Positions 1-43,215 of a DNA stretch of 64,000 bases are shown piece by piece. The translations under genes and the position numbers were made by a program. This stretch comes from Gammaproteobacteria bacterium. GTDB taxonomy: Bacteria > Pseudomonadota > Gammaproteobacteria > Eutrophobiales > Eutrophobiaceae. The stretch is taken from contig SCUJ01000006.1 of assembly GCA_004297165.1 (NCBI GenBank), positions 1,052,464-1,116,463 on the forward strand, in the 5' to 3' direction. How positions within the stretch are numbered: position 1 is the first letter of the stretch; each line of letters starts with the position of its first letter. The notes beneath the pieces were generated by a model. It was not told the DNA's origin. It saw nothing but the letters and a program-made list of their open reading frames with translations, and did no database searches.

Positions 1-1254
1 CCGCGCTCCAGCGAACGCTGGATCGCCTCGAAGACCACGATGCTGTTGTCCACCAGCATGCCGATGCCGATGGCGAGACCCAGCAGCGTCACCAGATTCA
101 ACGTGTAACCGGAGAGATACAGGATCGCGCCCGCGATCAGGAGGCTCACGGGCACCGCCACCGCGACCACCACGACGGCGCGCGCCTCGCGCAGGAACAG
201 GTACAACACGACGAGGGCAATCACGAAGCCCGAGAGGGCCAGCGATTTCAGGCGATCCAGTTGTTCCTCGACGGTGCTGGCGGCATCGAACCCGATCCGG
301 AAATCGATGCCGAACGGGGCGTACTCGCGCTGCAATTCCTCGATCCGCGTGCGCATGGCGCGCCCGAGTTGCACCAGATTTGCGCCCTCGTCCTGAAATA
401 CCAGCAGTCCGACGGCGGTCTTGCCGTTGACCCTGAATACGCTCTCCTGCCGCGCCGTGCCCATTTCGATTTCGGCAACATGCCGCAACAACACCGGCCG
501 CTCGGGGATCAGGCGGATCTCCCCGAGCGCGGCCAGCCCGCGCGGCCGGCCGTCCAGTATGACTTCCACTCGCCGGCTGTGATCCTTGGCCCCGCCGAGA
601 TAACGCAGACGCCGCACGGACCTGCCGAGCGCCTCCGTCACTTGCTCGGCGCGCACCCCAAGCGCCGCGCAGCGGTCGGGGTCGATCCAGATGGTCACCT
701 CGCGCGGCGCGCCTCCATTCACCCACACCTGGCTGATCCCCGGCAGGGCCGCCACCCGCGGCTGGATCTGTTCATCCACCAGATCGCGCAGGACGTTCTC
801 GTCGTGATCGCCCATGACCTGAACAATCATTACGAAGCGGCTCAGGGCCGATAGGTCCTGGGAGGATACATTTATAAATGTGCCTTCCGGCTGGGTGCGG
901 TTGAGTTCCGCGGCGATCTGTCGCAGTTCCAATTCCCGCGTCTTGTGATCGCTGCCCCGTTCGAATTGCATTTGCATGCTGCCCCGGTCGCCGTTCACCT
1001 CGCCCCAGGTTTCTTCCAGGCCGGCCAGTTCCCCGGCGCGCGCTTCGAGCGGCATCAGGATCTCGCGCTCCACGGTGTCGGGGTCGGAACCTGGCCGCTG
1101 AAATTGCACATACAACTGCTCGCCGCTTATCGCGGGCAATAACTCGACGGGGATGCGGTACCAGGCATACAGACCGAGCAGCGCCAGCGCGAGGAAAAAC
1201 ATCGACACCGCCATGGGGCGCTGGATGAGCAAGGCGAACGGGCTGCGTTGCATA
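1..1254 (-). CDS. RND efflux permease (AcrB/MdtC-like); only the N-terminal ~418 aa lie in the window, the 3' end runs off the window start
   Basis: Hand translation of the minus strand from the ATG at 1254 gives MQRSPFALLIQRPMAVSMFFLALALLGLYAWYRIPVELLP..., a typical HAE1/RND N-terminus (TM1 plus large periplasmic loop). It is absent from the ORF track because there is no stop inside the window. It starts 10 nt after the stop of the upstream RND gene. Confidence 0.75.
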
Positions 1255-1264
1255 CGCTGTGACT

Positions 1265-4200
1265 TCAACGAGGGCGCAGTCGATCGAGCGCCATATACAA
1301 GCAGGGGGTCAGCGTCAAAGAACTGATCGTCGAGGTGATGATGCCGCCGATAATGACCAATGCCATCGGACTGCGTAATTGCGCGGCCTCGCCGCTGCCG
1401 AGCGCCAGGGGAACCATTGCCAGCGCCGTGGTTGCCGAGGTCATAAGGATGGGGCGCAGTCGTAGTGAAGCCGCCTTCGCCAGGGCTTTGCGCCGCTCCA
1501 TCCCATCCTGGATAAGCTGTTGCGCCATCGTCGCGAGGAGAATGGCGTCATTTACCGCGACTCCCGCCAGTACGATCAAACCGAGCATCGCCATGATGCC
1601 GATGGGATCGCCCAGTGGCACGAATATCATCGCCACGCCTATCAGTCCCGCCGGTATCGCGCTGAGCACGGTCAGCGGGTGCAATAAAGATTCGAAGGTT
1701 CCCGCCAGCACCATCAGCACCAGTAATATCGCCAGCAACCCGGCCCAGGTTAGATCCCTGGTGGTTTGTTGCCGTTCCAGCTCCTCGCCCGCCAGGCTGG
1801 CTTCAAGTCCGGCCGGCAAATCCGTGGCCGCCAGCGCGTTCGCAACCGCCGTTCGCGCCTGTGGCACCGTGTAACCCGGCGCAATGCGGGCGGTGACCTG
1901 CGCGATCCGCCGTTGATCCTTGCGGAATATCTCCCGGGCCCCGGCCTCTGCCTTCAATTCGGCTACATCGCCGATAGTCAGGCGCTGGCCGTTGCGGCCC
2001 GTGAACGGCAGCGACAACAACTCATCCGGACCGACCTTGGGCAGCATCAGCATGACATCCCGCTCCTCGTCACCCATGGTGATGGTCGTGACCTTCAAAC
2101 CTTCCAGCGAGGTCTCCAACACGGACCCGACGGTCTCGAGATCCACCCCCAGCCCGTCCGCGAGCGTCTGGCGCAGGTTGATGCGCATCTCCGGCGGCGC
2201 GCCTTCGAAGGACGAGCGGACATTCCACAGCGCCTTTTCCCCGGCAAGGCTGGCCTGCACCCGCTCGGCGCCCAGGCGCAGATCATCGAGGGAATTGCCG
2301 GTGATCGCGACCGTGATTGGCGGGCCCGTGGCGCCCAGCGCGCTGGCCAGGGCGGAATTGCCGACCTCCCAGGCGATCTCCGTCCCGTACAATTCCGCGA
2401 CCGCCGGGATCGCCGCCCGGACTATCGCCCCGGCCGGCTGGCCGCCGGCAGCCAACCGGACGCGCATCTCGGCGGTGTTCTCCTCGGTCTGCACCTCGCG
2501 GATCAGTCGATCATCCTCGGGCAGCCGGCCGACCTCGGACAGGATCGCCTCCACATCGCCGGCGGCGACTTCCTTCAGGATGGATTCGATGAGCGCGACG
2601 ACCTCGGCGGTGGCCTCCACCTTCTGACCGGGCGGTCCCACCACGCGCAGACTGAACTGGCGCGGATCGGCGGGCGGGAGTAACTCGGTCCCCAGCCGGT
2701 ACAACGACCCTACGGCGATGACCGAGAGGACCGTGCTGACGACGACGACAGTCCAGGGTCTGCCCAGCAATTGATACACCATGACTTCCAGCCGTTTACT
2801 GCCGGGATCGACATCACGAGTCTTCTCGCGCGGCAGCAACCAGACGGAAAGCGCCGGGATTAGCAATACCGCAACCACGAGGGAAACCAAAACGGAAACC
2901 ACCACCGTGAAGGCGATTCCGCTGACCAGTCTGGCGGCCATCCCCTCGATAAAAATCACCGGCAGGAACACGACACAGTGCGTCAGCGTGCTGGCGACAA
3001 TGGCGCCGGCAACGATGCCGGCGCCCCGGGCCGCCGCCTGTATTGGCGCATCGCCCGCGGCCCGGCGGCGGAAGATGCTCTCCATGACCACGATGGCGTT
3101 ATCCATCAGCATCCCGGCGCCGAGCGCCAGACCGCCGAGCGTCATCAGGTTGAGGCTGTGCCCGGCGAAGCCGAGGCTGAAGACCGTGGCGAGCAGCGAC
3201 ACCGGCACGGACACCGAGACAATCAGGATGGGCGCCGGACTGCGCAGGAACAGAAACAGGACCGCGATGGCGAGTGCGATGCCGATCATGGCCGCGTTTT
3301 CCACATCGGCGATGGCATCCTCCACCAGCGCGGCCTCGTCCGCGATGACCTTGACCTCGAGTCCCGGCAGATCCGCATCGAGTCCATTCAGCGCCTCGCG
3401 CACCATGCGCGACACCGTGACGGTGTTGGCGCCCGCCTCCTTGTAAACGGACAGGCCCACGCCCTCGATGCCGTCCACGCGCACGAGGTGTTTGATATCG
3501 GCATCGGCCAGCGCCACCTCGCCCAGATCGGCGACATGCACCGGAACGACGCCCCGCTGGCCGGTGTCGACATAACTCACCACCACCCGGCCGATATCCT
3601 CCGGACCGGTGAACCGTGACAATCCCCTGACCAGGAATACATGATCGGCCTCCGCCAGCGTGCCGGCGTTGATGTCGATGTTGGTGGCGCTGATCCGGTT
3701 GCGCACGTCATTGATGGTGAGCCCGTAAGCCTCGATCCGCGCGCGGTCCAGCCGCACCTGCACCTCGCGTTCACGGCCGCCGGTCACCCGGACCTCGGCC
3801 ACGCCCTGCAACTGCTCCAGGGCCGGGGCAATCTGGCGCTCGGCCTGCTCGCGCAGATCGGCGAGATCCGTGCGCTCGTTGACGGCGACGAGACCGAGCG
3901 TCAGCACCGGCAGTTGCCGCGGATCGAAGCGGCGGACTCGCACCTCATCCACATCCGGGTCCGCGGCGATCGGCGCGACTGCCCGGTTCACCTCCACCAG
4001 GCCGAGATCGATATCGGCATTCCAGTCGAAGGTCACCCGCGTGATTAATTGCCCCGAGCGGGCGATCTGATCCACCGCGCGCAGTCCGCGCACGGTGAAG
4101 AGCAGTTGTTCGATGCGCTCGCCGTACAACTGTTCCATCTCCACGGCGGGACGCTCGCCGGAACTGACGGATACGAGCACGGTGGGACTTTGAATGTCCG

Positions 4201-4315
4201 GGAAGAGATCCAGCGGCAGGCCGCGCCAGGAGACGCAGCCGAGGACCACCACGACCACGGCGAACACGGTCATCGCTACCGGGCGGCGGGCCGCGATGCC
4301 TGCGAGGTATTCCAT
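1265..4315 (-). CDS. RND efflux permease, HAE1 family (AcrB/MdtB-like), 1016 aa
   Basis: 1016-aa ORF starting MEYLAGIAARRPVAMTVFAVVVVVLG.... Length and TM-rich segments match the 12-TM RND topology. In tandem with a second RND gene, as in MdtBC-type pumps. Confidence 0.85.
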   Translation of the reverse strand: MEYLAGIAARRPVAMTVFAVVVVVLGCVSWRGLPLDLFPDIQSPTVLVSVSSGERPAVEMEQLYGERIEQLLFTVRGLRAVDQIARSGQLITRVTFDWNADIDLGLVEVNRAVAPIAADPDVDEVRVRRFDPRQLPVLTLGLVAVNERTDLADLREQAERQIAPALEQLQGVAEVRVTGGREREVQVRLDRARIEAYGLTINDVRNRISATNIDINAGTLAEADHVFLVRGLSRFTGPEDIGRVVVSYVDTGQRGVVPVHVADLGEVALADADIKHLVRVDGIEGVGLSVYKEAGANTVTVSRMVREALNGLDADLPGLEVKVIADEAALVEDAIADVENAAMIGIALAIAVLFLFLRSPAPILIVSVSVPVSLLATVFSLGFAGHSLNLMTLGGLALGAGMLMDNAIVVMESIFRRRAAGDAPIQAAARGAGIVAGAIVASTLTHCVVFLPVIFIEGMAARLVSGIAFTVVVSVLVSLVVAVLLIPALSVWLLPREKTRDVDPGSKRLEVMVYQLLGRPWTVVVVSTVLSVIAVGSLYRLGTELLPPADPRQFSLRVVGPPGQKVEATAEVVALIESILKEVAAGDVEAILSEVGRLPEDDRLIREVQTEENTAEMRVRLAAGGQPAGAIVRAAIPAVAELYGTEIAWEVGNSALASALGATGPPITVAITGNSLDDLRLGAERVQASLAGEKALWNVRSSFEGAPPEMRINLRQTLADGLGVDLETVGSVLETSLEGLKVTTITMGDEERDVMLMLPKVGPDELLSLPFTGRNGQRLTIGDVAELKAEAGAREIFRKDQRRIAQVTARIAPGYTVPQARTAVANALAATDLPAGLEASLAGEELERQQTTRDLTWAGLLAILLVLMVLAGTFESLLHPLTVLSAIPAGLIGVAMIFVPLGDPIGIMAMLGLIVLAGVAVNDAILLATMAQQLIQDGMERRKALAKAASLRLRPILMTSATTALAMVPLALGSGEAAQLRSPMALVIIGGIITSTISSLTLTPCLYMALDRLRPR

Positions 4316-4320
4316 TACTT

Positions 4321-5493
4321 CTATTGACCGGTCACGCGGACATGCATCTGATCGGTGAGCGTCTCCAGCCCCCGTACGACGACGCGATCGCCGGGTTCGA
4401 CGCCCTTGCTCACTTCCACTTGCGTATCATCGCCGAGGCCGACCGTAACCTCCTGCTGCGCCACGCGCTGGCCGCGCAGCACGAACACTACCCGCTTGCC
4501 GCCGCGCTCGGCGAGCGCCCGGCGGGGTATCACCGGGACCTGCTCGCGGCGCTCCCCGATCAGGGTCACCTCCACGAACATGCCCGGTCGCAGCAGGCCG
4601 TCGCCGTTTTCGATCTCCACTTCCGCGCGCACGGCGCGGGTCTTCTGATCGATGGTCGGGGAGAGCCGCAGCACCTTGCCCTTGAAATCCCGATCCGGCC
4701 AGGCGTGATAACGGGCGTGCGCCTCCATGCCGGGGCGCACGGCGGCGATGTCCTCGCCCACCAGATCGATATCGGCTATCAGGACATTCAGCGGCGCGAT
4801 CTGGGCGATCATCTGGCCGGGATTGACCTGTTGCCCGTTCGCAAGCAACTGACCCGTATCATCCCTGGCCAGTTTCAGGATCGCGCCGTCGATCGGCGTG
4901 ACCAGGACATTCCGGCTGAGATTGTGGCGGGCCCGCTCCAGTTCCAGTTTGGCCTCCTCGAAGATGTCTTCCTTGGATTTCAACTCGTTCTGCGACACAT
5001 ACAGGCCCCGCTCATGGATCTTCCGGGCGGATTCGAGTTCGCTCGAGGCGGCTGCGTAGTGTGTCTGCGCGGCGGTCAGGCGGGCGGCAAGGCGCACATC
5101 CTCGCCGACAATCCGGGCGATCTCGTCGCCCGCATGCACCAGGTCGCCTTCGGCCAGACGGCCGGACGGTCCTGCGCCGATCTCCAGCCGGCCGGTCATC
5201 AACACGTCGAGCGTGATGACCTCGGTCACCCGCAGCGTGCCGGAGGAGAGGATGCGATCTTCCACGGTCGCGGTGCCGACGGGCTCGACCGACACGGGCA
5301 CGCGAAATTCCACCTCCTGGTTCTGCATGCCGGGATCGCAGGCCGCGAGCAGGCCGGCCAGGGCAAAGACCAGCGTAACCTGGATGAAATGAAATGGAAT
5401 CCAGGAAAGGATTCTCCTACAGCTTTTTGACGATACAACCCCCTCTCCCACCGGGAGACGACTACCGGGGTGAGGGCCGTATATTAGCGTCAT
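4321..5493 (-). CDS. RND/efflux periplasmic adaptor subunit (membrane fusion protein, HlyD/AcrA family), probable lipoprotein
   Basis: 390-aa ORF with a lipobox-like LAGLLAACD, beta-barrel/lipoyl-like and coiled-coil segments. The ATG at 5493 overlaps the TGA of the upstream permease gene (ATGA overlap). Confidence 0.8.
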   Translation of the reverse strand: MTLIYGPHPGSRLPVGEGVVSSKSCRRILSWIPFHFIQVTLVFALAGLLAACDPGMQNQEVEFRVPVSVEPVGTATVEDRILSSGTLRVTEVITLDVLMTGRLEIGAGPSGRLAEGDLVHAGDEIARIVGEDVRLAARLTAAQTHYAAASSELESARKIHERGLYVSQNELKSKEDIFEEAKLELERARHNLSRNVLVTPIDGAILKLARDDTGQLLANGQQVNPGQMIAQIAPLNVLIADIDLVGEDIAAVRPGMEAHARYHAWPDRDFKGKVLRLSPTIDQKTRAVRAEVEIENGDGLLRPGMFVEVTLIGERREQVPVIPRRALAERGGKRVVFVLRGQRVAQQEVTVGLGDDTQVEVSKGVEPGDRVVVRGLETLTDQMHVRVTGQ

Positions 5494-8400
5494 TGCGCAA
5501 TCTCCTGTTCGTCCTGTTTGGCGTCATCGGTATTGTTTCCGTTCGCGGGCGACCAGGCGATGGCGTCGGCGACCACCAGCGTTCCGTCCGTCTTGTCGGT
5601 AAGCTCGACGCTAACCTCGCCCGCGGGCAGATAATATTCTCCGACCAGGATCCAGCCATTGATGCTGCCGTTGGCGTTGAAATTGACTTCCTCCCGGCCC
5701 TCCGCCGTGACAATGGTCAGCGGCCAGATGCCGCGCCTGTCAGGCGGTATATAAGGTATCAACGGCATGTGGAACTCCAGCTCCCAGTTGCCGGCAGCGG
5801 GGATCTGCGCCTTCATGATGACGCGATTGTCCCCTTTGCCCGGCCGGATATAGGCCAGCGTGTGCCGGTAACGGCCGAAGGTATTGCGTCCGGCGCGGCG
5901 ACGCCATTCCGCCGGGATGCCCTGGCCGGTGGCCACGGGCAGACCCTGATCTTCGCCGGCATCGATCCCCTGGCCCAGCAAACGCATGCCCGAGACCTTC
6001 GCGCCCATGACCGCCGAGAAGCCCGGGTCCAGATCGTCCACGATGATGCGATCGTCGGAACCCTGGTCCCAGGGCGTTGGCATTACGCCGTTGACGGGTT
6101 CGACCTGCCGCTCCTGGATGTCCTCCGTAGCCAGCGTCTGCGCCAGGAAATCCTCCCGGTTCAGCGCCAGGTACGGTTCGACGTAGACGGCGACCGGCGG
6201 CTTGGACAGGACCGTGCCGAAACGGACCGCCGATCGGCCGTCAACCCGGAAGGGTTCGCTGCGGGTCCGGTTGGCATAGTCCTGTTGATCTTCCGCGGTC
6301 ATGGTCCAGGCGACCCGCGCGAAACCGGTCACCGGCTCGTCGTTGCGCACGCGCACCAGCAACTGGTATGCGCTCTCGCCGCTTTCGGTGTCTGGCAACC
6401 GGTAAAACTCGACGTTATCCGCGATGAAGCCGGGAAGATCGGCGGTGCCGAACCAATCGTCGAACAGCGCGCCGAGATCCCCGCCCGCGCCCGCGGCGGC
6501 GGTCACGAGGTCCGTGCGGGTGAAGGATTGTCCCGCGCGCTCCTTCAGCAGTTGCGCCAGCATCCGGCCGGTGGTCTCAGGCCCCAGGCTGTCATAGATC
6601 GCCTGCGCCAGTTTGCCGGCCTTCAGCGTCAGCACATCGATGGTCTTCTGCGGGTCGGCGTAGGGATCGAGGTCGGATAGCGGCGTCTGCAACGCCGCGT
6701 CCCACACCTTGGTTTGCGTGGTAAAGGCGGTGATGAGCGCATCGGTGACGCTGCTCGCGCCGCGGCCCTGGATGGAGTTGATGACGCTGGTCGCCGTCTG
6801 ATTTATAGAGGTGAAGAGATGGGCGGAGAAATAACTGCGCTGGCCCGAGAGGATCAGCGTCGCGAGTTCTTCCAGGGTGTAATCGAGCGCGATGGCGTCC
6901 GGTCCGTAGGCCGAGGTCCGGTGGGCGTAGATCGATTGCGCCGCCCCGGTGAACAGGTTGCCGCCGGAGACGTCGTTGTTGAAGAAGCCGATCAGGCGGT
7001 CGCGATCGATGCGGGCCTTGCCGCCTTCCTGATCGAAATCCCGCTTGTTGCCGAAACTGTTGCCGATATCGAAATCGAACCGCGCCGTCGGGAACCCGCT
7101 CTCCCGCAGCAACATGAGTCCGGGCGGCGCGAGCGCGGTGTTGAGGCGCCAGCCGCCCTGGAACGACCGCAGCCGGGACGGCACTTCCACCAGCGTGAAG
7201 GCGTCAAAGGGATAGTCCAGACCCGCCGTGCGATTAATCTCCAGGCGATCCGCGACCCAGCGCTCCACTTCATCGCGCGATTCTCCCAGCAAGGCAAGGT
7301 TCTGGTCATGATCGGGATGGACCAGGACCTCGAAATTTATACCGTCGATCTCGGTCGCATAACTCTTGAATTCGGAGGCAAGCAACGCCACTTCGGGCAG
7401 ATCCACCCTGGGCGCGAACCGGAACCTGGCCTGGTCCGCGCTCTTATCGATCGGCGTTCGTTTGCCCGGACCCGCCACGATCCAGTCGGATGGAACTCCA
7501 ACCTCGAGGTCGATGGTAAAAAAGTCCCGCCGCCGTTTGCGCGTATCGTCCCTGCCCACCGCGGCGCCCGCCGAGGGCAGCCAGTGGATTCCTGGCATCA
7601 GCGCCACGTACCGGCGATCGAAGACCCCGGGTTCGAAACCGAGTAATCCGACCTGGGCGTCCGACGTCTTGAGGTTTTCCATCTTCAACGAGCTGTCGAG
7701 ATAGGCGAAAAAGACCACCGGACTGCCATGATATTCCAGCGCGAGATCCAGCGATTCCCCCGCCGGGAGGGGCTGTGGCAACTGGATATCGAGCAGGCCA
7801 TCGGCGTGCGTTATCGAGAGCGCCGCACCGTCGCCGGCGCTCGCACTGTCGACCGTGAAGCCTGGGTTAAGGGTGAACAGCAGTTTATCGAGCCCCATCT
7901 CCGCCGGGGCTTGCAGCCGTATTCGCAGCTTGACGGTCAGGTTCTTGCCCGGCTCGATGCCTACGGACCCGCTGAGCGTTTGGAGATCCGGGAACGGGTC
8001 CGCGACGCGGGCGGTATGCGCCGCCGTCCACCGCTCCGCACGGGCCAGGGCATTGCCGCGCATCCCGGAGGCGCCTGCGAGCGACGCCAGCCCGATGATC
8101 ATCAAACCGGCTGAGATTCCCGCGGTCAAACCACGCCGACCGCCGTCCAGACGGGGATGAATGACCGCCGCGATCCCGACCAGGCCCAACGCAAAGGCCA
8201 GGTAGCCGGCGCGCTGCAACCAGCCTTCGGGCCGCAACATCGAGGGGACGATATCCGAGGGAAAATCCATCATGGTCATGCCGAGAAAATCGACGTAGGG
8301 CGCATGGATCGCCGGCCACGTGATGGTCGCCCAGTACATCCCGGCAAGCAGGGCCACCGACAGCAAGGCGGCGATCAAACGGTGCCGGACCAGCAAGGTA

Positions 8401-8933
8401 ATCGTGAAGACCAGGGCAAAGTTGAAGGCGAGCGCCGGGAGCGTCATCGGCAGCGCGAAACCGATGAGCGATACGGGTTCGATCGCCCGGCCAAGGGGCG
8501 AACCCACCAGCGGCAGGAGCCAGCCCAGGGTTTGCAGCAGCAGCGCGAGGAGTATCACCGGGATCCACGCGCAGAGCAGCAACCCGATGAATCTCCCCGC
8601 GATCAATTCAAGGTTGGTCAGCGGCCTGGCATCGAGGACTTCCACCATGCTCTCCCGGACATCGCGGGCGCGGACATCGAAGGCGAGGAAGATGACGCCT
8701 ATGGTAAAGCCGGTAAGGTAGACCGAGCCGATGGCGCTGACGAGATAACGCGGATTGATCATGCCGATGGTCGGGGAAAACGCGGAACCGAAGGCGTGGA
8801 TGGCGCTGTAATAAAAGAACAGCAGCAGACCGCCGCCGAAGGCCAGGGCAAGAAACAGCCAATAACGGGTCAAACGCCGGGTCAGACGGGCCTCAGTCCG
8901 CGCAACCGCCAGTATCTTTGTCACATCGATCAT
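5490..8933 (-). CDS. ABC-2 family transporter permease (N-terminal ~330 aa, multi-TM) fused to a large C-terminal extracytoplasmic domain resembling an M1 aminopeptidase-N fold; no HExxH seen, so probably catalytically inactive
   Basis: Long ORF. N-terminus MIDVTKILAVARTEARLTRRLTRYWLFLALAFGG..., with 6-7 hydrophobic helices. GGAGGAG RBS 7 nt upstream of the ATG at 8933 (the ORF track's 8993 start is less likely). The C-terminal ~800 aa resemble 'ABC transporter permease/M1 family aminopeptidase' fusion proteins, but I could not find HExxH. Confidence 0.55.
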   Translation of the reverse strand: MIDVTKILAVARTEARLTRRLTRYWLFLALAFGGGLLLFFYYSAIHAFGSAFSPTIGMINPRYLVSAIGSVYLTGFTIGVIFLAFDVRARDVRESMVEVLDARPLTNLELIAGRFIGLLLCAWIPVILLALLLQTLGWLLPLVGSPLGRAIEPVSLIGFALPMTLPALAFNFALVFTITLLVRHRLIAALLSVALLAGMYWATITWPAIHAPYVDFLGMTMMDFPSDIVPSMLRPEGWLQRAGYLAFALGLVGIAAVIHPRLDGGRRGLTAGISAGLMIIGLASLAGASGMRGNALARAERWTAAHTARVADPFPDLQTLSGSVGIEPGKNLTVKLRIRLQAPAEMGLDKLLFTLNPGFTVDSASAGDGAALSITHADGLLDIQLPQPLPAGESLDLALEYHGSPVVFFAYLDSSLKMENLKTSDAQVGLLGFEPGVFDRRYVALMPGIHWLPSAGAAVGRDDTRKRRRDFFTIDLEVGVPSDWIVAGPGKRTPIDKSADQARFRFAPRVDLPEVALLASEFKSYATEIDGINFEVLVHPDHDQNLALLGESRDEVERWVADRLEINRTAGLDYPFDAFTLVEVPSRLRSFQGGWRLNTALAPPGLMLLRESGFPTARFDFDIGNSFGNKRDFDQEGGKARIDRDRLIGFFNNDVSGGNLFTGAAQSIYAHRTSAYGPDAIALDYTLEELATLILSGQRSYFSAHLFTSINQTATSVINSIQGRGASSVTDALITAFTTQTKVWDAALQTPLSDLDPYADPQKTIDVLTLKAGKLAQAIYDSLGPETTGRMLAQLLKERAGQSFTRTDLVTAAAGAGGDLGALFDDWFGTADLPGFIADNVEFYRLPDTESGESAYQLLVRVRNDEPVTGFARVAWTMTAEDQQDYANRTRSEPFRVDGRSAVRFGTVLSKPPVAVYVEPYLALNREDFLAQTLATEDIQERQVEPVNGVMPTPWDQGSDDRIIVDDLDPGFSAVMGAKVSGMRLLGQGIDAGEDQGLPVATGQGIPAEWRRRAGRNTFGRYRHTLAYIRPGKGDNRVIMKAQIPAAGNWELEFHMPLIPYIPPDRRGIWPLTIVTAEGREEVNFNANGSINGWILVGEYYLPAGEVSVELTDKTDGTLVVADAIAWSPANGNNTDDAKQDEQEIAQ

Positions 8934-8961
8934 TTGCATTCTCCTCCGCGCCCGCGCCGGA

Positions 8962-9879
8962 TCAGTTGTCTGCCATCGCCAGTTCTTCGACATGGCGGCC
9001 GCGGCCGGCCATGAACGCGAGATAGGCCTCTTCGAGCGTGATATCCTCGACCAGCCTGGCCCCCGCGGGCCCGGTCCCTTCCTTGATCACGCCGCGCAAG
9101 GTCACAAGGCCATTCTTGAATGTCCGGGCGACGATCTCCATCCGCTCCCCCGCCTCCGCCTCCGCGGTTTCGGGCACCGTTATCTCGCACACCTTGTTGC
9201 GCGCGAGCGCGACGAGTTCGGACGGAGAACCGCGAAATTGGAGTTTGCCGTGATCGATCAAGGCAAGGTCCGAGCAACCCGACCCCAGATCGGCGACGAT
9301 GTGGGTGGAGAGAACGATGACGCGGTCCCGGCTGAGGTCGGTCATGAGTTGACGGAAACGCAGACGCTCCTCCGGGTCGAGCCCGACGGTCGGCTCGTCC
9401 ATGATCAACACCCTGGGTTCATGCACCAGGGCCTGCGCCACGCCGAGCCTTCTAAGCATGCCGCCGGAGAGTTGTTTCACCTTGCGATCGGCGACCTTCT
9501 CCAGACCGACGGACGCGAGCACCGCCGCGATGCGTTGTCCGCGGGACTTGCCATCCTTCATGCCGGAGAGCATGGCCAGGGTATCCAGGACCTCCTCCAC
9601 GCACTGCAACCTCCAGGCGCCGAATTCCTGGGGCAGATAGCCCAGCAGATTACGCACCGCGCGCCGGTTCTCCACCACGTCCATCCCGTCAACCGTGACC
9701 CGGCCGCGCGTCGGCGCGAGCAAGGTGCAGATGATCCGCATGAAGGTGCTCTTGCCGGCGCCATTGGAACCGAGCAGTCCGAACAATCCGGCGTCGATCT
9801 CCAGATTCACTCCGTCCAGCGCGACCGTGCCGCCGCGATAGACGTGCCCAAGATTTTCCGCAACGATCATACTGGCCAT
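8962..9879 (-). CDS. ABC transporter ATP-binding protein (ABC-2 type exporter ATPase)
   Basis: Walker A GSNGAGKST, ABC signature LSGGMLRR, Walker B VLIMDEP, H-loop STH. Confidence 0.9.
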   Translation of the reverse strand: MASMIVAENLGHVYRGGTVALDGVNLEIDAGLFGLLGSNGAGKSTFMRIICTLLAPTRGRVTVDGMDVVENRRAVRNLLGYLPQEFGAWRLQCVEEVLDTLAMLSGMKDGKSRGQRIAAVLASVGLEKVADRKVKQLSGGMLRRLGVAQALVHEPRVLIMDEPTVGLDPEERLRFRQLMTDLSRDRVIVLSTHIVADLGSGCSDLALIDHGKLQFRGSPSELVALARNKVCEITVPETAEAEAGERMEIVARTFKNGLVTLRGVIKEGTGPAGARLVEDITLEEAYLAFMAGRGRHVEELAMADN

Positions 9880-9943
9880 AAACGTGCATCCTCATCTATG
9901 CATATTTAAAGAGTAGGCGAATTGTACAACGATTGTCGTTATG

Positions 9944-9991
9944 GTGTTATATGCAACTATAACACTTATCGCATCACCTCCAATGCGATAA
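9944..9991. promoter_or_regulatory. Two abutting perfect palindromes (GTGTTATA-TGCAAC-TATAACAC, then TTATCGCAT-CACCTCCA-ATGCGATAA) in the divergent promoter region between the ABC/RND operon and the acyl-CoA synthetase gene; candidate operator sites
   Basis: Seen directly: 8-6-8 palindrome at 9944-9965 followed immediately by a 9-8-9 palindrome at 9966-9991, 65-110 bp upstream of the ABC ATPase start codon. Confidence 0.35.
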
Positions 9992-10314
9992 TTTCAGGGT
10001 GAGACTGGCGACGCTGACAGATCACCCAACCGGAGTGCGTGAATTAGATTTCGGATCGCCCAGTGCCCGATAAAAAATTTCACTCCGTACCCCCTCGCCC
10101 TGATTCTACAACCATCGTCTCCATGAATGTCACTCGGTATTCGGCGGGCGTCGCTCAAGACTCGGTCAGTGACGCCATGTTCCGCGTTCAATAATTACCG
10201 GGTAATGGTATGTTCAGATTGGCCCCAGGTCCGTAAAATACTTTTTTATCCGAATCCGGCCGCCACGGCTGGATTGGTTCGATAATAATCATAACGTTTA
10301 CGGGAGTAGTGCAT

Positions 10315-12372
10315 ATGTCCCCCTTTGAGACAGTAACCAACATTTTCCAGTCCGCTCACGCTGATGGCCGGGATACGCTTACCACCGTCGAGATAAAACG
10401 TCTCCTGGACTTTGGGGACGATCTCAAGCCGGCAACCGGCGCGGGACATGCCAGCATCTCGATAGGGATACGCCGCTTGCGGGATTTCGGCATGGTGATC
10501 GAGGCTGGCATAGCCGGAGAGGATCTCGGGATCTATGGCGGGGCCTTGCGCCGCGGTCAGGCAACGGCGACCGCGCTGACCGGACTCACCGATGCCCGCG
10601 GTTTCCTGGATACGTTCCGCGGCACGGTCGGATACCGCAAGCTCACCGCTCGCGCAGGCGCAGAGGCACAAGCGCTGGATAACGCGCTGGAAGCATGTTT
10701 CGCGCGTTTGATCGGAATAGCCAACACACTCGCCCCGGAGCATCCCGACACAAACTGGGTCATCGATGAACTCGAACTCACCCTGGCGACTTCGGATCGG
10801 CAACGGTTATTGCAGGAAAATTGCCGCTGCCGTTTCTCACGTAACGCGCCGGCCCGGACCGCGCGACCCATCGGGAAGATCGACAACCTGCTGCACCCCC
10901 AATCCATCGGTATCGTCGGGGTCTCCGCCAAGGGCATGAATTTCGGCCGCATCATCCTGAACAATATCGTGAGCGGCGGTTATGACAAGAACAAACTGCG
11001 CATCATCCGGCCCGGCGAGACGGAGATCGACGGGGTGAAGTGCGTCGAGAGTTTCGCGGCAATGAATGGCAAGCTGGACCTGATCATCATGGCCGTGGCC
11101 GCCGATGCGGCCTTCTCCATGGTGGACGAGATCATCAGCACGGATGCCGCCGAGTCCGTCATGCTGATCCCCGGCGGTCTGGGGGAGACCCAAAAAAGCC
11201 TGGAACCGACCGCGCGGATGAACGCGAAGATCGACGCGGCGCACCGGCAACCGGGGGGCGGCCCAATCTTCCTCGGCGGCAACTGTCTCGGTGTGATCTC
11301 CCATCCGGGCAATTACGACAGTTGGTTCGTTCCGCCCGAGCGACTGCCGCGTCCGCGGATCAAGGCACGGAGAAATACCGCGCTGATCAGCCAGAGCGGG
11401 GCCTTCATGGTCACCCGGATCGGCAAGCACCCCTGGCTGGATCCCGCCTACATGATCGCGGACGGCAATCAGAACGATCTCTCCCACAGCGATCTGCTGC
11501 GGTATTTCAACACCCGCGACGAGATCGAGGTGATCGGAATTTATATCGAGGGCTTCCGGGATCTGGACGGCGTCGCCTTCGCCCACGCGGTGCGGGAGGC
11601 GGTGCGCAAGGGGAAACAGATCGTCGTCTACAAGGTCGGGCGCACGGAATCGGGGCAGAAGGCCGCCATCGGACACACCGCCTCGACGGCCGGCGATTTC
11701 ACCCTGGCCGAGACCCTGTTGCGCCAGGCCGGCGCCATCGTGACCAACGACCTGACCGACTTCACGGACCTGATGTACATCGCCGATTGCCTGCACCATA
11801 AACAGATTAACGGCAAGCGAATCGGCACCATCAGCGGCGCGGGCTTCGAGGCCGTCGCGATGGCGGACAGCCTCGAAACGGACGGTTTCTCCCTGGAGAT
11901 GGCGGCGCTGACTCCGGAAACCGTAAAGCGCCTGGAACAGATATTGATCGACAAAAAACTGGACGCACTGATGGAGGTCCGCAACCCCATCGACATCAAT
12001 CCCGCGGCGGACGACGAGGCCCACCTGCGCTGCACGGTCGCCTTCGCCGAGGATCCCAACGTCGATGCCGTCGTGTCGAGCATGGACCCCGCCTCCCCCA
12101 TGATCATGGGCCTGGAGAAATCCAGCCGGCCGGGATTCGACATCCACAACGAGAAGAGCCAGGTGAACACCTTCCCGAAGATGGTGCGGGAATGCAATAA
12201 ACCGATCGTCTGTGTCGCGGACAGCGGTCCGCTCTATGACGTCATGGCGACGAAGCTCATGGATCAGGGCGTGTGTCTGTTCCGGTCCTGCGAACGCGCC
12301 ACACGCGCCCTGTCCCGGTACGTGGAGGCGCGACTGCGCGCGGAGGCGATCCGCAAACAGGCACGATCATGA
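10315..12372 (+). CDS. Acetate--CoA ligase (ADP-forming)/NDP-forming acyl-CoA synthetase family protein with a ~190-aa N-terminal extension
   Basis: CoA-binding domain (IGIVGVSAKG...), succinyl-CoA-synthetase-like and ATP-grasp parts. GGGAG RBS 8 nt upstream of the ATG at 10315 (a GTG at 10309 is also possible). Confidence 0.75.
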   Translation: MSPFETVTNIFQSAHADGRDTLTTVEIKRLLDFGDDLKPATGAGHASISIGIRRLRDFGMVIEAGIAGEDLGIYGGALRRGQATATALTGLTDARGFLDTFRGTVGYRKLTARAGAEAQALDNALEACFARLIGIANTLAPEHPDTNWVIDELELTLATSDRQRLLQENCRCRFSRNAPARTARPIGKIDNLLHPQSIGIVGVSAKGMNFGRIILNNIVSGGYDKNKLRIIRPGETEIDGVKCVESFAAMNGKLDLIIMAVAADAAFSMVDEIISTDAAESVMLIPGGLGETQKSLEPTARMNAKIDAAHRQPGGGPIFLGGNCLGVISHPGNYDSWFVPPERLPRPRIKARRNTALISQSGAFMVTRIGKHPWLDPAYMIADGNQNDLSHSDLLRYFNTRDEIEVIGIYIEGFRDLDGVAFAHAVREAVRKGKQIVVYKVGRTESGQKAAIGHTASTAGDFTLAETLLRQAGAIVTNDLTDFTDLMYIADCLHHKQINGKRIGTISGAGFEAVAMADSLETDGFSLEMAALTPETVKRLEQILIDKKLDALMEVRNPIDINPAADDEAHLRCTVAFAEDPNVDAVVSSMDPASPMIMGLEKSSRPGFDIHNEKSQVNTFPKMVRECNKPIVCVADSGPLYDVMATKLMDQGVCLFRSCERATRALSRYVEARLRAEAIRKQARS

Positions 12373-14183
12373 GCAAGACACTGATCCTGTCGGGCCTGCT
12401 GTCAGGCAGCCTTTGCTGCGCCGGACAGGTCATCGCCCAAACGACGGATTGGTTGAGCTACAACAACGGCCTGGATGGCCAGCGTTACTCGCACCTCGAG
12501 TCTATCAACGTCGCCAACGCCAGCCAGTTGGGGGAAATCTGCCGCGTGCAGATAGACGGTCCGGCCTCGTTTCATGCGGGGCTCATCGCAAGCGGCGGCC
12601 TGATCTACACCAACACCAGCCGCACGACGGTCGCCATCGATGCCCGGACCTGCGAGGTGCGCTGGAAGTACGATTATCAGCCGGAAGAGGCCCGATGCGG
12701 TGGCTCCAACCGCGGGCTGGCGCTGCACAACGGCAGACTCTATCGCGGCACCTGCGACGGCCGGCTGATCGCCCTCGATGCCGCAACGGGAAAACTGCTG
12801 TGGAAGAACGTCATCGCCGTGCCGGCGTTGGGAGAGAGCACCTCCGCCGTGCCGCTCGCCTGGCAGAACCTGGTGTTCATGGGCATCGGCGGGAGTGAGG
12901 TGGGGATCCGCGGACGGGTGATGGCCTACGACGCGACCACGGGTCAGGAGTTGTGGCGCTTTCATACCATCCCGATGGGAGACGAGATCGGCGCGAATAC
13001 CTGGAAGCGTCCCGAGACTGCGAAGACCGGTGGCGGCGGCGTGTGGGGCGCCATGTCGCTCGACGTGACGAGAGGAGAATTGTACGTCCCGGTCGGCAAT
13101 CCCTGGCCGGATATCGATCGGGATTACCGCCCCGGCGACAACCTGTTCACCGATTCCGTCGTCGTTCTCGATGCCCGCACCGGGGCGCTGCGGTGGTGGC
13201 ATCAGGTCGCCCCGCAAGACTGGATGGATTTCGATCTGGCGGCGGCGCCCATGCTCTACCGGGGCAACGGCGCGAGGGATTATGTCGCCATTGGCGGCAA
13301 GGATGGTTATCTCACCGTGGTGGACCGGGACACTCATAAGCAAGTATTCAAAACGCCGGTCACGACGGTCGAACACATTCATGACAAACCCTCCCGAGAA
13401 GGGACGCGGATGTGCCCTGGCTATGCCGGGGGTGTGGAGTGGAACGGACCCGCCCTGGACAGGACGACCGGCAATCTGATCGTCGGCGCTGTGGACATCT
13501 GCTTCATCGTCACCCTGGGGAAGGCGACCTACAAGGCAGGGCAACTCGATTTTGGCGGAACCGTGGCCCCGGATGGCGAGGCGACCGGCTGGATCACCGC
13601 CGTGGACAGCGAAACCGGGGAAGTCAAATGGCGCTACCACGCGGATAAACCCGTGGTGGCGGGCATCACCCCGACTGCGGGCGGAGTGACCTTCGCCGGC
13701 GATCTCGCGGGCAACTTCCTGGTCTTCGAAAGCGCGAGCGGCGACCTGCTGCACAAGGTCGATGTGGGCGGCGCGATGGCCGGCGGCGTGATTACCTACG
13801 CCATCGACGACCGGCAATATGTCGCCTTCGCATCCGGCAACATCTCCAGAAATGCCTTCGGCGATATTGGCTTTCCCAGCGTGGTCATCATGACCCTCAA
13901 TCCGGAGAACCCGCCCCGCGCGATCGATGCCACCGTCAAGGACGTGCAGGGGATCGCCAACGGCCGGCTCCTGTTTGGCGAGGTATGCGCCTCCTGCCAC
14001 GGCACGGACGGGAACCTCGTCCCCAATCACCCGCTAAGCAAGCTGGCGGCAAAAATGAACCTGGAGGATGCCGTCGATTACATCAAGGATCCGGCAGTGC
14101 CAATGCCGAACCTGTACCCGGATCTGATCGACGATCAAGCGGTGCTCAACGTGGCGCGGTATATTTTGGAAGAGTTGAACTGA
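12370..14183 (+). CDS. PQQ-repeat beta-propeller protein (quinoprotein dehydrogenase-like) with a C-terminal mono-heme c-type cytochrome domain (CASCH); secreted
   Basis: Signal peptide MSKTLILSGLLSGSLCCAGQVIA. Repeated W/G-rich propeller blades (ATGKLLWK, TGQELWRF, TGALRWWH, TGEVKWRY). A CxxCH heme motif near the C-terminus. The ATG overlaps the stop of the upstream gene (ATGA). No vicinal Cys-Cys ring, so not a canonical MDH/ADH. Confidence 0.7.
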
Positions 14184-14206
14184 ATAACCTTGGCTTGGGG
14201 CTCCAA

Positions 14207-14623
14207 TCAAATCCCCACCACCGCAGCGCCTATGGCGAGTTTCTTTCCGTCCTGATTTTCAGCCTGCAATTCCAATCGGATGATGCGCGGACTGCCCTCT
14301 TCGATGGCCGTGATCCGGCCCGTGCAGACGATGCAGTCTCCGGGTCTGGAGGGTGCGAGCAGGCGGGTCTGAAATTCCAGAAGGGATTGCTGCGGGACCC
14401 AGTTCGTGAGCAGGCGGCCGAGATACGCCATGGTCAGCATGCCGGGCCCGATGACGTCATCGAGGCCGGCAACGTTTCTGGCGTAATCGCTGTCCACATG
14501 GATAGGATTGTAATCGCCGGAGGCGCCGCAGTAGAGGGCGAGCGTCAAACGGGTGAGCGGCGGCGCCCGGAATTCTGGAATCGCGTCGCCGACCTTGAAT
14601 TTGAATTCCTTGATCGTATTCAT
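14207..14623 (-). CDS. MaoC family dehydratase (hot-dog fold, R-specific enoyl-CoA hydratase-like subunit)
   Basis: MNTIKEFKFKVGD...DYNPIHVD... hydratase motif. The start is at an internal Met of the 193-aa track ORF and overlaps the upstream partner by 4 nt. Confidence 0.75.
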   Translation of the reverse strand: MNTIKEFKFKVGDAIPEFRAPPLTRLTLALYCGASGDYNPIHVDSDYARNVAGLDDVIGPGMLTMAYLGRLLTNWVPQQSLLEFQTRLLAPSRPGDCIVCTGRITAIEEGSPRIIRLELQAENQDGKKLAIGAAVVGI

Positions 14624-15072
14624 GACCCCGCGCGCCGTTGGACAACTATCGTCTGCTCCGCTTCGCAGACCACTCGCCCCTCGCCGTCCTTGAACTCGGT
14701 GACCACGACGATGAACTCCAGCGCGCCGTTTTTCCGCGCATAGATGTCGCTCACCCGTTTCTGACCGTACAGCGTATCTCCCGCGCACGCCGGGAGGCGA
14801 TAGCGGAAGCTTTGTTCGCCATGGAGGATCTCGGCGAAATCGAGGCCGAAGAGATGCAGAGTATCGAAGGGATCGGGGATATCCTTGCCGAGGCAGAAGG
14901 GATAGGTCGGCGGCATGGGCAGCGAGCGGTAGCCGGCGGTGCGCGCGGCGTCCTCATCGGTATAGATCGGATTCGTCTCGCCAATCGCCTTGGCAAACAA
15001 CCGCAATCGCCCCTTCTCCAGTTCCACCTGGAAGGGCGGGAAACGATGGCCGATCAGGGTTCGATCAAGCAT
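14620..15072 (-). CDS. MaoC-like N-terminal dehydratase subunit (hot-dog fold partner of the downstream MaoC protein; HadA/HadB-like two-subunit hydratase)
   Basis: 150 aa, FAS1-like dehydratase/MaoC_dehydrat_N features. Translationally coupled to 14207-14623. Confidence 0.7.
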   Translation of the reverse strand: MLDRTLIGHRFPPFQVELEKGRLRLFAKAIGETNPIYTDEDAARTAGYRSLPMPPTYPFCLGKDIPDPFDTLHLFGLDFAEILHGEQSFRYRLPACAGDTLYGQKRVSDIYARKNGALEFIVVVTEFKDGEGRVVCEAEQTIVVQRRAGS

Positions 15073-15087
15073 CGCGATCCCTGCCGG

Positions 15088-15456
15088 TCACCAGAGCCCG
15101 AGTTGCAGACGGGATTCCTCCGTCATGTACTCCGGTTTCCAGAACGGGTCCCAGACCAGTTCGAAGGCGACGTCCGTTACGCCGTCTACCGCGAGCAGTG
15201 CCCGGCGGATCATCCCCGGGATCTCTTCCGAGACGGGGCACGAAGGCGTCGTGAGCGTCATCACCACCTTGACCTTGCCGTCCTCCCGGATCCTGAGATC
15301 GTAGATGAGACCCATCTCGAAGATGCTCACGGGTATCTCGGGGTCGTACACCGTGCGCAGGGCCTCGACGATCTGTGGTTCAAAAGGAGAAGTCTCTGTC
15401 CCGACCATATAAGGCACGGGGCGGGCATCGGGATCGAAGGGCTCGAAGTCAGGCAT
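15088..15456 (-). CDS. DUF59/MIP18-family Fe-S cluster assembly protein (SufT/PaaD-like)
   Basis: 122 aa; ...IVEALRTVYDPEIPVSIFEMGLIY...TLTTPSCPVSEEI... matches the DUF59 signature. Confidence 0.65.
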   Translation of the reverse strand: MPDFEPFDPDARPVPYMVGTETSPFEPQIVEALRTVYDPEIPVSIFEMGLIYDLRIREDGKVKVVMTLTTPSCPVSEEIPGMIRRALLAVDGVTDVAFELVWDPFWKPEYMTEESRLQLGLW

Positions 15457-15518
15457 GGCGGGCGTGGGCGATATAATGCATATATTCGTATTATAATACT
15501 TATTTAAGAATTCATTGA

Positions 15519-16013
15519 TTGATCATGGCATTACCTGGAGTCCGGTTATTCGACATGAACACAACGATTACAGGGGATTCGTTGCTGATCCGGGAGGCCC
15601 GCGCCGACGACCTCGCGGCCATCATCGGGATCGATGATCAGGTCACCAACATCGCCAAGCCCGAATACTGGCGGGATATGTTCACCCAATACGAACTTAA
15701 CCGGGAACACCGGTTTTTTTTGGTGGCGGACGAGTACGCGAAGGTCGTCGGCTTCATCATCGGCGAGGTCCGGGCCTGGGAATTCGGTTCCGCGCCCTGC
15801 GGCTGGGTCTTTGCCATCGGCGTCGATCCCGCCCGTCGCCAGTCCCAGGTCGCATCCAGAATGCTCGCCGCGCTCTGCGATCAGTTCGCGCAGGCCGGCG
15901 TCACCAAGGTGCGCACCATGACCTCCCGCCAGGATCACGTCCTGCTTTCCTTCTTCCGCAGCCAGGGGTTGATGGCCGGTCCGTATCAGCAACTGGAGAA
16001 GGACCTGTCATGA
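15519..16013 (+). CDS. GNAT family N-acetyltransferase
   Basis: Acetyl-CoA-binding core (VFAIGVDPARRQSQVASRMLAAL). The start may instead be the internal Met at 15555. Confidence 0.75.
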   Translation: MIMALPGVRLFDMNTTITGDSLLIREARADDLAAIIGIDDQVTNIAKPEYWRDMFTQYELNREHRFFLVADEYAKVVGFIIGEVRAWEFGSAPCGWVFAIGVDPARRQSQVASRMLAALCDQFAQAGVTKVRTMTSRQDHVLLSFFRSQGLMAGPYQQLEKDLS

Positions 16014-16486
16014 AACTTCAGCGCGCGACGCTGCTCGGCCTCTACGCCATCATTGAACTCGCCGATCAGCCGGATCTGCAACTCTCCCGCAGTGAGATCG
16101 CGCGCAAGTTCGATGTCTCCAGCAATCATTTGTCGAAGGTGATGCGCGAGCTCGGCAAGGCCGGGCTCGTGGAGGCCGTGCGCGGCGTCGGCGGCGGCTA
16201 TCGTTTCTGCGGCAACGCCAGACGCACCACGCTGCTCGATATCATCCAGATCTTCGAGGACTTCCGCTTCGACAGCCCGGACCAGCGGGAGCCGGGGATG
16301 GGTACCGAGATCGGCAAGGCCCTGGACCTCGTGCTTGGCGAGATCAACGAAAGCATAAACTCGACCTTGCGTTCCATCAGCCTCGCCACGATGTTGATGT
16401 TGAAAAATCGCCGCCAGGCTGTACCATCCGAACAGAGCACAGGTGATTCCTCGATTCAGTCATCCAGACCGGGACAATTATCATGA
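16010..16486 (+). CDS. Rrf2 family transcriptional regulator (BadM/IscR-like wHTH)
   Basis: MKLQRATLLGLYAIIELA...SRSEIARKFDVSSNHLSKVMRELGKAGLVEAVRGVGGGYRF is a canonical Rrf2 N-terminus. ATGA overlap with the flanking GNAT genes. Confidence 0.8.
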   Translation: MKLQRATLLGLYAIIELADQPDLQLSRSEIARKFDVSSNHLSKVMRELGKAGLVEAVRGVGGGYRFCGNARRTTLLDIIQIFEDFRFDSPDQREPGMGTEIGKALDLVLGEINESINSTLRSISLATMLMLKNRRQAVPSEQSTGDSSIQSSRPGQLS

Positions 16487-43211: not shown

Positions 43212-43215
43212 TTGG

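Follow-up and report, generated by a model that had tools for sequence, protein, structure and literature searches.

Resistance-nodulation-division (RND) pumps are textbook secondary transporters driven by protons whereas ATP-binding cassette (ABC) pumps are primary, ATP-driven transporters, with each regarded as an alternative to the other for powering export through a periplasmic adaptor. The nearest operon-level precedents for the system described here are MdtABC, in which, as in MuxABC, an adaptor gene is followed by two paralogous RND genes that differ in their proton-relay residues, suggesting a division of labour, and the YbhGFSR and YhiI-RbbA-YhhJ systems of Escherichia coli, in which the genes for an ABC-2 ATPase and permeases lie in one operon with that for a membrane fusion protein (MFP), an adaptor of the HlyD family (YbhFSR is described in PMC7190983). 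None of these precedents has an RND-ABC fusion, a membrane-inserted nucleotide-binding domain (NBD), a pseudo-M1-aminopeptidase ectodomain, or both types of pumps around one adaptor. The locus analysed here, where each of these features is observed or predicted, lies in a stretch of 64,000 nucleotides (hereinafter the window) from a gammaproteobacterial genome (GCA_004297165.1, contig SCUJ01000006.1, positions 1,052,464 to 1,116,463). Together with its counterparts in other genomes, it encodes a single adaptor along with exactly one pair each of NBDs, ABC-2 membrane domains and RND paralogs, and all parts belong to known classes (ABC-2/type V ABC, RND, MFP, the M1 fold and a module resembling family 35 carbohydrate-binding modules, CBM35). 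The interpretation that we favour, with a rough probability of 0.55, is that these components form one composite export machine of the inner membrane and periplasm in which an ABC-2 module is tethered to an RND module, the two sharing one adaptor and employing both ATP and the proton-motive force.

The classes of the minus-strand open reading frames (ORFs) of the window were assigned with Pfam and NCBIfam profiles, and the gene junctions were read directly off the sequence. Five co-directional ORFs are present on the minus strand in the region 1..9879, namely A1, P1, MFP, RND1 and the start of RND2, with the following features.

9921..9950, minus strand: sigma-70-like promoter candidate ATAACA-18-TACAAT, a consensus match only, about 40 nt 5' of A1
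8962..9879, minus strand: A1, an ABC-2/ABCA-like ABC ATPase encoded as a separate protein of 305 aa (Pfam ABC_tran, 7e-30)
8941..8947, minus strand: Shine-Dalgarno sequence GGAGGAG, 7 nt before the P1 ATG at 8933
5490..8933, minus strand: P1, a giant ABC-2 permease, 1147 aa, with seven transmembrane (TM) helices followed by a periplasmic ectodomain
4321..5493, minus strand: MFP, a periplasmic adaptor lipoprotein, 390 aa (TIGR01730, RND_mfp)
5338..5349, minus strand: lipobox LAAC of MFP (Cys52), just before the conserved mature N-terminus 'EVEFRVPV'
1265..4315, minus strand: RND1, a full-length RND permease, 1016 aa (ACR_tran, 4.7e-195)
1..1253, minus strand: RND2, the first 417 codons from the ATG at 1253 (ACR_tran, 9.5e-77), the remainder lying beyond the window start

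All five tightly spaced genes of the initial annotation are bona fide ORFs with the expected profile classes, and the proposal of a single tightly coupled, transcription-unit-like block in which one adaptor gene and a pair of paralogous RND genes accompany an ABC-2-type system is supported. The 28 nt between the A1 stop codon and the P1 ATG (8933), the GGAGGAG sequence, and the ATGA shared by the P1 TGA and the MFP ATG (-4) are as annotated; the gaps between the MFP stop and the RND1 ATG and between the RND1 stop and the RND2 ATG are corrected from 6 to 5 nt and from 10 to 11 nt, respectively. An alternative in-frame ATG of P1 is located at 8939, and the start at 8933, which is also that of the public protein P0001 (identical to P1), is favoured because it fits the spacing from GGAGGAG. 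The promoter candidate (9950..9921) is the single promoter-like match on this strand within 1..10400 and lies in the AT-richer (low-GC) gap before A1. Terminator-like matches do not exceed chance (9 detected vs 6.5 +/- 3.2 expected from shuffles) and are absent from the gaps between the minus-strand genes.

The fifth gene is cut by the window edge. Contig L001 (GCA_040960765.1), which was found by exact look-up of the P1 protein, is 98.5% identical to window positions 1..17568 and reaches past the window start. In L001, RND2 is a protein of 1573 aa encoded in one frame (L001 17681-22402) and comprising an ACR_tran domain (residues 7-1035; 5.6e-151), about six hydrophobic helices (1049-1260) and an ABC_tran domain (1304-1447), denoted NBD2. 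The 3' end of this gene overlaps by 4 nt the gene for P2, a 241-aa protein with six TM helices; P2 of L001 yields weak ABC-2 membrane matches, and its orthologs reach the Pfam cutoff (ABC2_membrane_2, down to 5.4e-8). The operon, which had been thought to end with two RND permeases, hence continues through an approximately 1573-aa RND::6TM::ABC ATPase fusion into a second, small ABC-2 permease gene. Instead of one adaptor placed between an ABC system and an RND pair, as initially described, two ABC halves bracket the adaptor and RND genes, and a covalent ABC-RND link is present. The unit, as defined by L001 and its relatives, consists of seven rather than five genes, in the order A1-P1-MFP-RND1-RND2::linker::NBD2-P2.

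The conservation of this arrangement was assessed by scanning 185,579 species genomes with a P1 profile, which yielded 223 relatives; the best 80 were taken with 10-kb flanks and, along with L001-L003 (identified by exact-protein look-ups), compared by tblastn with all parts of the system, for a total of 83 loci. The full colinear order on one strand is found in 42 of the 83 loci, another 21 are colinear up to the contig end, and there are three clear exceptions (L037, L051 and L073). L002 and L003 contain the same seven genes around homologs with 55% and 46% identity; the flanking genes differ among L001-L003, so the block is self-contained. The carriers span at least three bacterial phyla, with protein identities of 35-70%, and include Gammaproteobacteria (Pseudomonadales, Azotimanducaceae, Porticoccaceae, Alteromonadaceae), Acidobacteriota (Vicinamibacterales, Thermoanaerobaculia, Holophagae and the isolate Mor1) and Desulfobacterota (Desulfatiglandales, Desulfobacteraceae). 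The gene order is conserved across these phyla for a unit of seven genes and not the five originally delineated. Nearly all carriers are metagenome-assembled genomes (MAGs), and closed chromosomes (OZ..., CP011806) are among the loci with an unbroken fusion.

The RND2 and NBD2 parts are encoded in one uninterrupted ORF in all loci where this can be judged (42/42). In two additional loci (L011 and L056), both parts are present in different reading frames, which we read as frameshifts. Between the two parts there is neither a start codon nor a ribosome-binding site context, and the linker itself shows conservation. A search seeded with the fusion again recovered a complete cluster (L166), and a distant version of the RND-RND-NBD arrangement is found in L087 (28% identity in the RND part, 49% in the NBD). 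A word-indexed search with the linker alone retrieved two proteins, and a metagenome scan, which settled on generic Walker motifs, returned ordinary ABC ATPases. Two further loci (L167 10001-13176 and L168 10001-13308) contain a gene for half an RND protein joined to the linker and NBD2 (821-872 aa) and a P2 gene, standing alone; one is flanked by several insertion sequence transposases and the other by unrelated genes, and most likely both represent remnants, or else a shorter version that occurs naturally.

The linker and NBD2 of RND2 were modelled with AlphaFold2 (pLDDT, the predicted local distance difference test score, 82; linker alignment of 30 homologs). In the model, a pair of helices after the twelfth TM helix of RND2 leads to a conserved strand 'vEVRyLrKvYGlPGP', behind which lie four long hydrophobic helices and then the NBD, starting from its second strand. 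Matches of NBD-family profiles to NBD2 begin only at profile position 12-16, the alignment of A1 with NBD2 begins at A1 residue 14, and the detached strand is in register with A1 residues 5-15 (E 0.12, a weak alignment). NBD2 can be read as an NBD whose first strand is split off by a four-helix membrane insertion, a reading that leans on the model. A Foldseek search with the linker-NBD2 model returned ordinary NBDs only. The possibility that the six-helix stretch between RND2 and NBD2 is a degenerate ABC-2 membrane domain is not supported: hhalign comparisons with P2 and with the membrane domain of P1 recover only a 25-33-residue motif (E 0.04-0.16), and global alignment fails. This motif comprises the RND2 strand 'IETRYLSKVYGLPGPVGRAW' (L001 residues 1109-1133), which resembles the motif 'IEQRTLEVTYTVPGGAHRVW' located after TM2 of P2 (residues 88-112; 40% identity over 25 aa, hhalign E 0.04-0.16); each follows two TM helices and precedes four. 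The resemblance could be due to chance or could be a trace of common origin.

Both ATPases appear to be catalytically competent members of the DrrA/GldA/ABCA group. The best NCBIfam matches of A1 are GldA and DrrA, both below the cutoff, and its best solved relatives are the NBDs of ABCA7, ABCA1 and ABCA4 (~1e-54) and NosF (4e-31); for A1 and NBD2 together, the nearest solved relatives are ABCA-family NBDs, TM_1403 and NosF. Every ATPase motif, namely Walker A, the Q-loop, the signature (LSGG in A1), the D-E of Walker B, the D-loop and the H-loop, is invariant both among 66 orthologs of A1 and among 42 orthologs of NBD2. The two are full-length paralogs, with 35% identity over the NBD and C-terminal domain (hhalign 4e-71). 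The ATPases of YbhGFSR and YhiI-RbbA-YhhJ belong to the same broad DrrA/GldA/RbbA-like group, but an RND component, a giant ectodomain and a fusion to a secondary transporter are all absent from these systems.

The two RND genes are located directly 3' of the single adaptor gene. Both RND1 (which matches ACR_tran over residues 7-1010) and the RND part of the fusion have the full-length 12-TM architecture of HAE-1-like RND permeases, including the two large periplasmic loops, and the paralogs share 30-40% identity. The initial description of the pair as MdtBC-like stands as an analogy, given that MdtB is the best solved relative of RND1 (9lyq_B, 2.6e-85), and fails as a statement of orthology and with respect to the proton-relay signature. 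The NCBIfam equivalogs score far below their cutoffs, with 334.6 bits for RND1 against the MdtC cutoff of 1774 and 325.8 bits against the MdtB cutoff of 1584; the window fragment of RND2 reaches 158 (MdtC) and 129 (MdtB) bits relative to the same cutoffs. The relay residues of AcrB are D407/D408/K940/R971, and the signature shared with MdtB (TM4 Asp-Asp, TM10 Lys, TM11 Arg) is kept by neither RND1 nor RND2; the alignment of RND1 to MdtB has DN instead of DD and N-D instead of K-N. Unlike in MdtABC and MuxABC, the TM4 D-D and TM10 Lys are replaced by D-N/N-D in RND1 and D-N/N-P in RND2; also unlike these systems, RND2 is extended by about six TM helices and an ABC ATPase, and ABC-2 genes flank the RND genes. 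In RND1, TM4 D405-N406 (3098..3103), TM10 N922-D923 (1547..1552) and TM11 R954 are invariant among 50 orthologs. In RND2, the family-wide invariant residues are D-N (TM4; D402-N403 at window 45..50), N-P (TM10) and R. Two membrane carboxylates are accordingly kept in RND1 and only one in RND2. The RND1 pattern of two carboxylates and an Arg is reminiscent of that of CusA (D405/E939/K984). This asymmetry suggests that RND1 may be the proton-coupled subunit and RND2 may have another role. RND2 of L001 additionally contains a glycine-rich, low-complexity loop (GIEGGGGGGGDSGGGGAQGGGLFGDS; residues ~645-672) in the second periplasmic loop, the most divergent part compared with RND1 and solved RND proteins.

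The adaptor scores 177.2 bits with TIGR01730 (cutoff 94.9), and the lipobox is present in at least 52 of the 63 MFP orthologs. Its best solved relatives, TriA-TriB (6e-20), MacA (4e-14), ZneB and MexJ, span RND-type and ABC-type adaptors. MacAB-TolC shares with the present system the combination of an ABC transporter with a periplasmic adaptor and the idea of ATP-driven periplasmic mechanotransmission. In contrast to P1 and P2, which are of the type V/ABC-2 class, MacB is a type VII transporter whose NBD is fused at the N-terminus and whose four TM helices have the periplasmic domain inserted between TM1 and TM2. P1 has 7 TM helices, a C-terminal ectodomain and a NosY-like membrane domain, and its NBD is encoded by a separate gene.

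The AlphaFold2 model of P1 (41 homologs; pLDDT 86.4, predicted template modelling score 0.82) consists of the seven TM helices followed by the ectodomain. The features of P1 are the following.

8010..8933, minus strand: membrane domain, residues 1-308, with the ABC-2/type V fold and an extra seventh helix that renders the C-terminal part periplasmic
6450..7988, minus strand: pseudo-M1-aminopeptidase domain, residues ~316-828
7140..7157, minus strand: GGWRLN, residues 593-598, matched by eye to the M1 'GAMEN' motif from the flanking 'YPF..T.VE.P' and 'LLRES'
6972..6986, minus strand: FFNND at the position of the M1 'HExxH' motif, residues 650-654, followed by GGN-L (compare M1 'FGNL'), register by eye
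5556..5909, minus strand: Golvesin_C/CBM35-like beta-sandwich, residues ~1009-1126

The Arg/Lys-rich N-terminus and the alternation of loops suggest that the N-terminus of P1 is cytoplasmic and the C-terminal 840 aa are periplasmic. The membrane domain has the ABC-2 fold, with NosY as the closest solved relative; Pfam ABC2_membrane scores 9.5 bits on P0001 (E 0.73; cutoff 27.2, not reached) and matches 16-17 of 41 relatives, at best with 1e-7 to 1e-8. The seventh TM helix and the C-terminal pseudo-M1 and CBM modules that it leads to set P1 apart from the NosDFY and ABCA systems, where NosD is a separate beta-helix protein and the ABCA ectodomain is a TM1-TM2 insertion; moreover, unlike these, the present system is linked to RND and MFP genes.

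The ectodomain has the three-domain M1 fold, and the top 50 Foldseek hits are M1 enzymes only (1e-17). Because Pfam Peptidase_M1 and Peptidase_M1_N match none of the 41 P1 family members at E<=1 and an hmmsearch of the Protein Data Bank with the P1 family profile gave only marginal M1 matches (0.036-0.045), the assignment rests on structure comparison. A genuine M1 gene, sought as the basis for a profile-profile alignment, was found neither in the window nor in the compared loci. The initial annotation of an aminopeptidase-N-like ectodomain of ~800 aa is right as to the fold and has to be narrowed in extent, with only ~520 of the ~840 aa being M1-like and the rest consisting of beta-sandwiches and the Golvesin_C/CBM35-like module. 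The search for an intact HExxH...E zinc site, which the annotation had already reported as missing, found none: HExxH occurs in 0 of 118 family members, and P1 itself contains neither HxxxH nor any HE dipeptide. Aligned by eye, 'YPF..T.VE.P...R..GGWR[LM]D.....P....LRES' of the P1 family lines up with M1 'YP..K.D.V..P.F..GAMEN.G...YRES', so that GAMEN is replaced by GGWR[LM]D, and 'FFxND..GGNL' appears to be the counterpart of 'HExxH..FGNL'. In this register, the positions of the two zinc-binding His, the catalytic Glu and the distal Glu would read F/Y, D, F and T, respectively. These residues are nearly invariant: G593, G594, W595 and R596 are conserved in 72-77 of 77 sequences, F650 in 64/77, F651 in 76/77, N653 in 71/77, D654 in 77/77, and T673, at the expected position of the third zinc ligand, in 70/77. 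Such near-invariance of the replacing residues points to a conserved, predicted binding pocket rather than decay. Given the loss of the zinc site across the family, the earlier suggestion of a non-catalytic role remains a sensible reading, and the loss of both HExxH-E and GAMEN, along with the fusion to a transporter, distinguishes the P1 family from M1 aminopeptidases such as PepN, ERAP1, LTA4H and the Deinococcus M1 enzyme (6a8z).

The P1 family is large, with 1418 clusters at 50% identity at E<=1e-3 and 634 at E<=1e-30, and nearly all of the 150 members listed are 1100-1200 aa long. Orphan copies include those in L029, L039, L041, L060, L065 (P1 at ~10001-13400 in most of these) and L081 (5767-9174); the neighbours of orphan P1 genes are housekeeping genes (carB, purF-like, uvrA, aldo-keto reductase, Sel1 and others) which give no functional clue. 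Some genomes, for example that of Desulfatiglandales CAXXPR010000002, hold both an operon copy and an orphan copy. Tandem P1-P1 duplicates are found in L048 (6557-13492), L073 (6486-13384) and L078 (6550-13417), and in L073 they are followed by uvrA instead of the adaptor and RND genes.

The data show the gene content and order, the fusion, the folds, the conservation of motifs and the lipobox. As the most economical assembly, we infer a single complex, together with its stoichiometry, dual energization, transport direction and kind of substrate, along the following lines. The ATPases A1 and NBD2 and the membrane domains of P1 and P2 would form one heterodimeric type V (ABC-2/ABCA-like) ABC module that is tied to the RND module via the NBD2 part of the RND2 polypeptide. 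NBD2 would be held at the membrane by the two linker helices and by the four hydrophobic helices inserted after its first beta-strand. RND1 and RND2 would assemble into a 2:1 heterotrimer, by analogy with the known MdtB2C stoichiometry, so that one RND2 per trimer supplies exactly one NBD2; the mismatch between three-fold and two-fold symmetry would be resolved in this way. The lipoprotein adaptor would bridge the pump to an outer-membrane channel encoded elsewhere. The dead M1 shell of P1, jointly with the CBM35-like module, could serve as an ATP-driven element for substrate capture or hand-over, and the RND-adaptor part would then expel the substrate using the proton-motive force. An amphiphile whose head group is a glycan or a peptide may be the substrate. 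The further proposition that this would be the first case of an RND transport cycle powered or gated by an ABC ATPase covalently joined to the transporter, in one machine that couples ATP hydrolysis with the proton-motive force, with a 2:1 trimer carrying one membrane-anchored NBD paired with its free paralog and two ABC-2 domains, and a dead M1 'hand' feeding the pump, is put forward tentatively; it is less likely than not, although its chance of being right is substantial.

Several observations weigh against the composite machine. The physical complex, its stoichiometry and the energy coupling are all matters that we infer. The assignment of the detached strand as the first NBD strand depends on the AlphaFold2 model and the weak alignment (E 0.12), and the match of this strand to the ABC-2 motif of P2 is about as weak (E 0.039). 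The similarity between the P1 membrane domain and P2 is marginal (hhalign E 0.004, probability 8%). No gene for an outer-membrane factor is present among the called genes of L001-L003 or the 10 other large ORFs of the window that were scanned. The genome scan was seeded with P1, so that the co-occurrence figures are biased toward P1-bearing loci. Furthermore, in L085 (2929-12723), MFP-RND1-RND2::NBD2-P2 is accompanied by GST and PhyH genes in place of A1-P1 (with RND2 called in three pieces), and 14 orphan P1 paralogs lack an adjoining ATPase, adaptor or RND gene. At least at the genomic level, A1-P1 can thus occur separately from the RND::NBD2-P2 half, and vice versa.

The latter two observations are compatible with a different explanation, namely that the operon encodes two or three independent, co-transcribed transporters (a homodimeric A1/P1 ABC-2 exporter, a tripartite MFP-RND1/RND2 pump and an NBD2/P2 ABC-2 exporter) that handle related substrates in sequence, for instance first from the cytoplasm into the periplasm and from there out of the cell, and form no single complex. 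Each module is complete on paper, both NBDs are canonical and could homodimerize, and single-component and RND pumps are known to cooperate functionally without physical contact. However, the invariable fusion (42/42) joins the RND part and at least the NBD2/P2 part into a single physical unit, an NBD fused to a trimeric RND protein cannot simply homodimerize, and the exact gene order with tight or overlapping junctions is maintained across three phyla. On balance, independent pumps appear rather unlikely.

Alternatively, the ABC parts could be mechanotransmitters or regulators, similar to FtsEX-EnvC, LolCDE or NosDFY, with ATP moving the P1 ectodomain so as to gate, assemble or load the RND pump or to act on an envelope polymer. 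FtsEX, which controls a catalytically dead protein with a peptidase fold, is a precedent, and NosY, the closest solved membrane relative of P1, comes from a complex that works via a periplasmic partner. The same scenario would accommodate the pseudo-enzyme character of the P1 ectodomain, whose remodelled pocket is strongly conserved (E583, R589, GGW595R, E611, FF-ND654, GGN), and the similarity of its C-terminal module to CBM35 and xanthan lyase, which suggests glycan binding. The present evidence does not discriminate between gating and transport, and ABCA-like NBDs along with two ABC-2 membrane domains fit a genuine type V exporter equally well. We consider a purely mechanotransmitting or regulatory role unlikely.

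It is highly improbable that the M1-like domain is still a hydrolase, with an unconventional metal or catalytic site, that processes a periplasmic peptide during export. The M1 fold is intact and E535, H542, E583, E611 and D654 of the ectodomain are invariant, but HExxH is missing from all 118 sequences, the positions of His, Glu, His and the distal Glu are taken by F/Y, F, D and T, GAMEN is substituted, and the Peptidase_M1 profile recognizes none of 41 family members. Finally, although the carriers are mostly MAGs and the gene is in pieces in some long-read contigs (L084, L085, L166), the chance that the RND::ABC fusion merely reflects misassembly or faulty gene calling, such as an overlooked stop codon or a frameshift in metagenome bins, is negligible. 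The frame is unbroken in 42 independent loci that differ in phylum, assembler and study and include closed chromosomes, and the conserved linker is devoid of start signals.

The divergent plus-strand neighbours of the operon (window 10309-14183; L001 4751-8619) encode a CoA-binding/succinyl-CoA-ligase-like protein and a dehydrogenase dependent on pyrroloquinoline quinone (PQQ) with a cytochrome c domain; the flanks differ in L002 and L003, so these genes are considered to lie outside the conserved block. Elsewhere on the plus strand of the window (37910-56001 and 61038-63404), there is a Wsp-like chemosensory cluster that encodes CheR-TPR, two methyl-accepting chemotaxis proteins, CheA-CheW-REC and CheB, and is followed by genes for REC-GAF-GGDEF-EAL, REC-GAF-PAS histidine kinase, REC-GAF-PAS-GGDEF-EAL and dCache-HAMP-GGDEF-EAL proteins.

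NCBIfam contains no model for P1, the linker or P2, and the source annotations currently read 'hypothetical', 'multi-copper enzyme maturation permease', 'RND permease, partial' and 'ATP-binding cassette domain-containing protein, partial'. Literature searches for RND-ABC fusions, fusions of an ABC-2 permease with M1 and the ACR_tran plus ABC_tran pair, and a term search of a large 2021 review of tripartite pumps, did not find this architecture described. The system is widespread among uncultured Gammaproteobacteria, Acidobacteriota and Desulfobacterota of sediment, soil and marine origin, where it has neither a curated family nor a name. The strict covalent RND-ABC fusion suggests that the two engines can be built into one machine. 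If this is the case, the system would be a natural setting in which to ask how an ABC dimer of two-fold symmetry is joined to an RND trimer of three-fold symmetry, whether the RND cycle can be driven or gated by ATP, and what role a catalytically dead aminopeptidase shell plays on a transporter.

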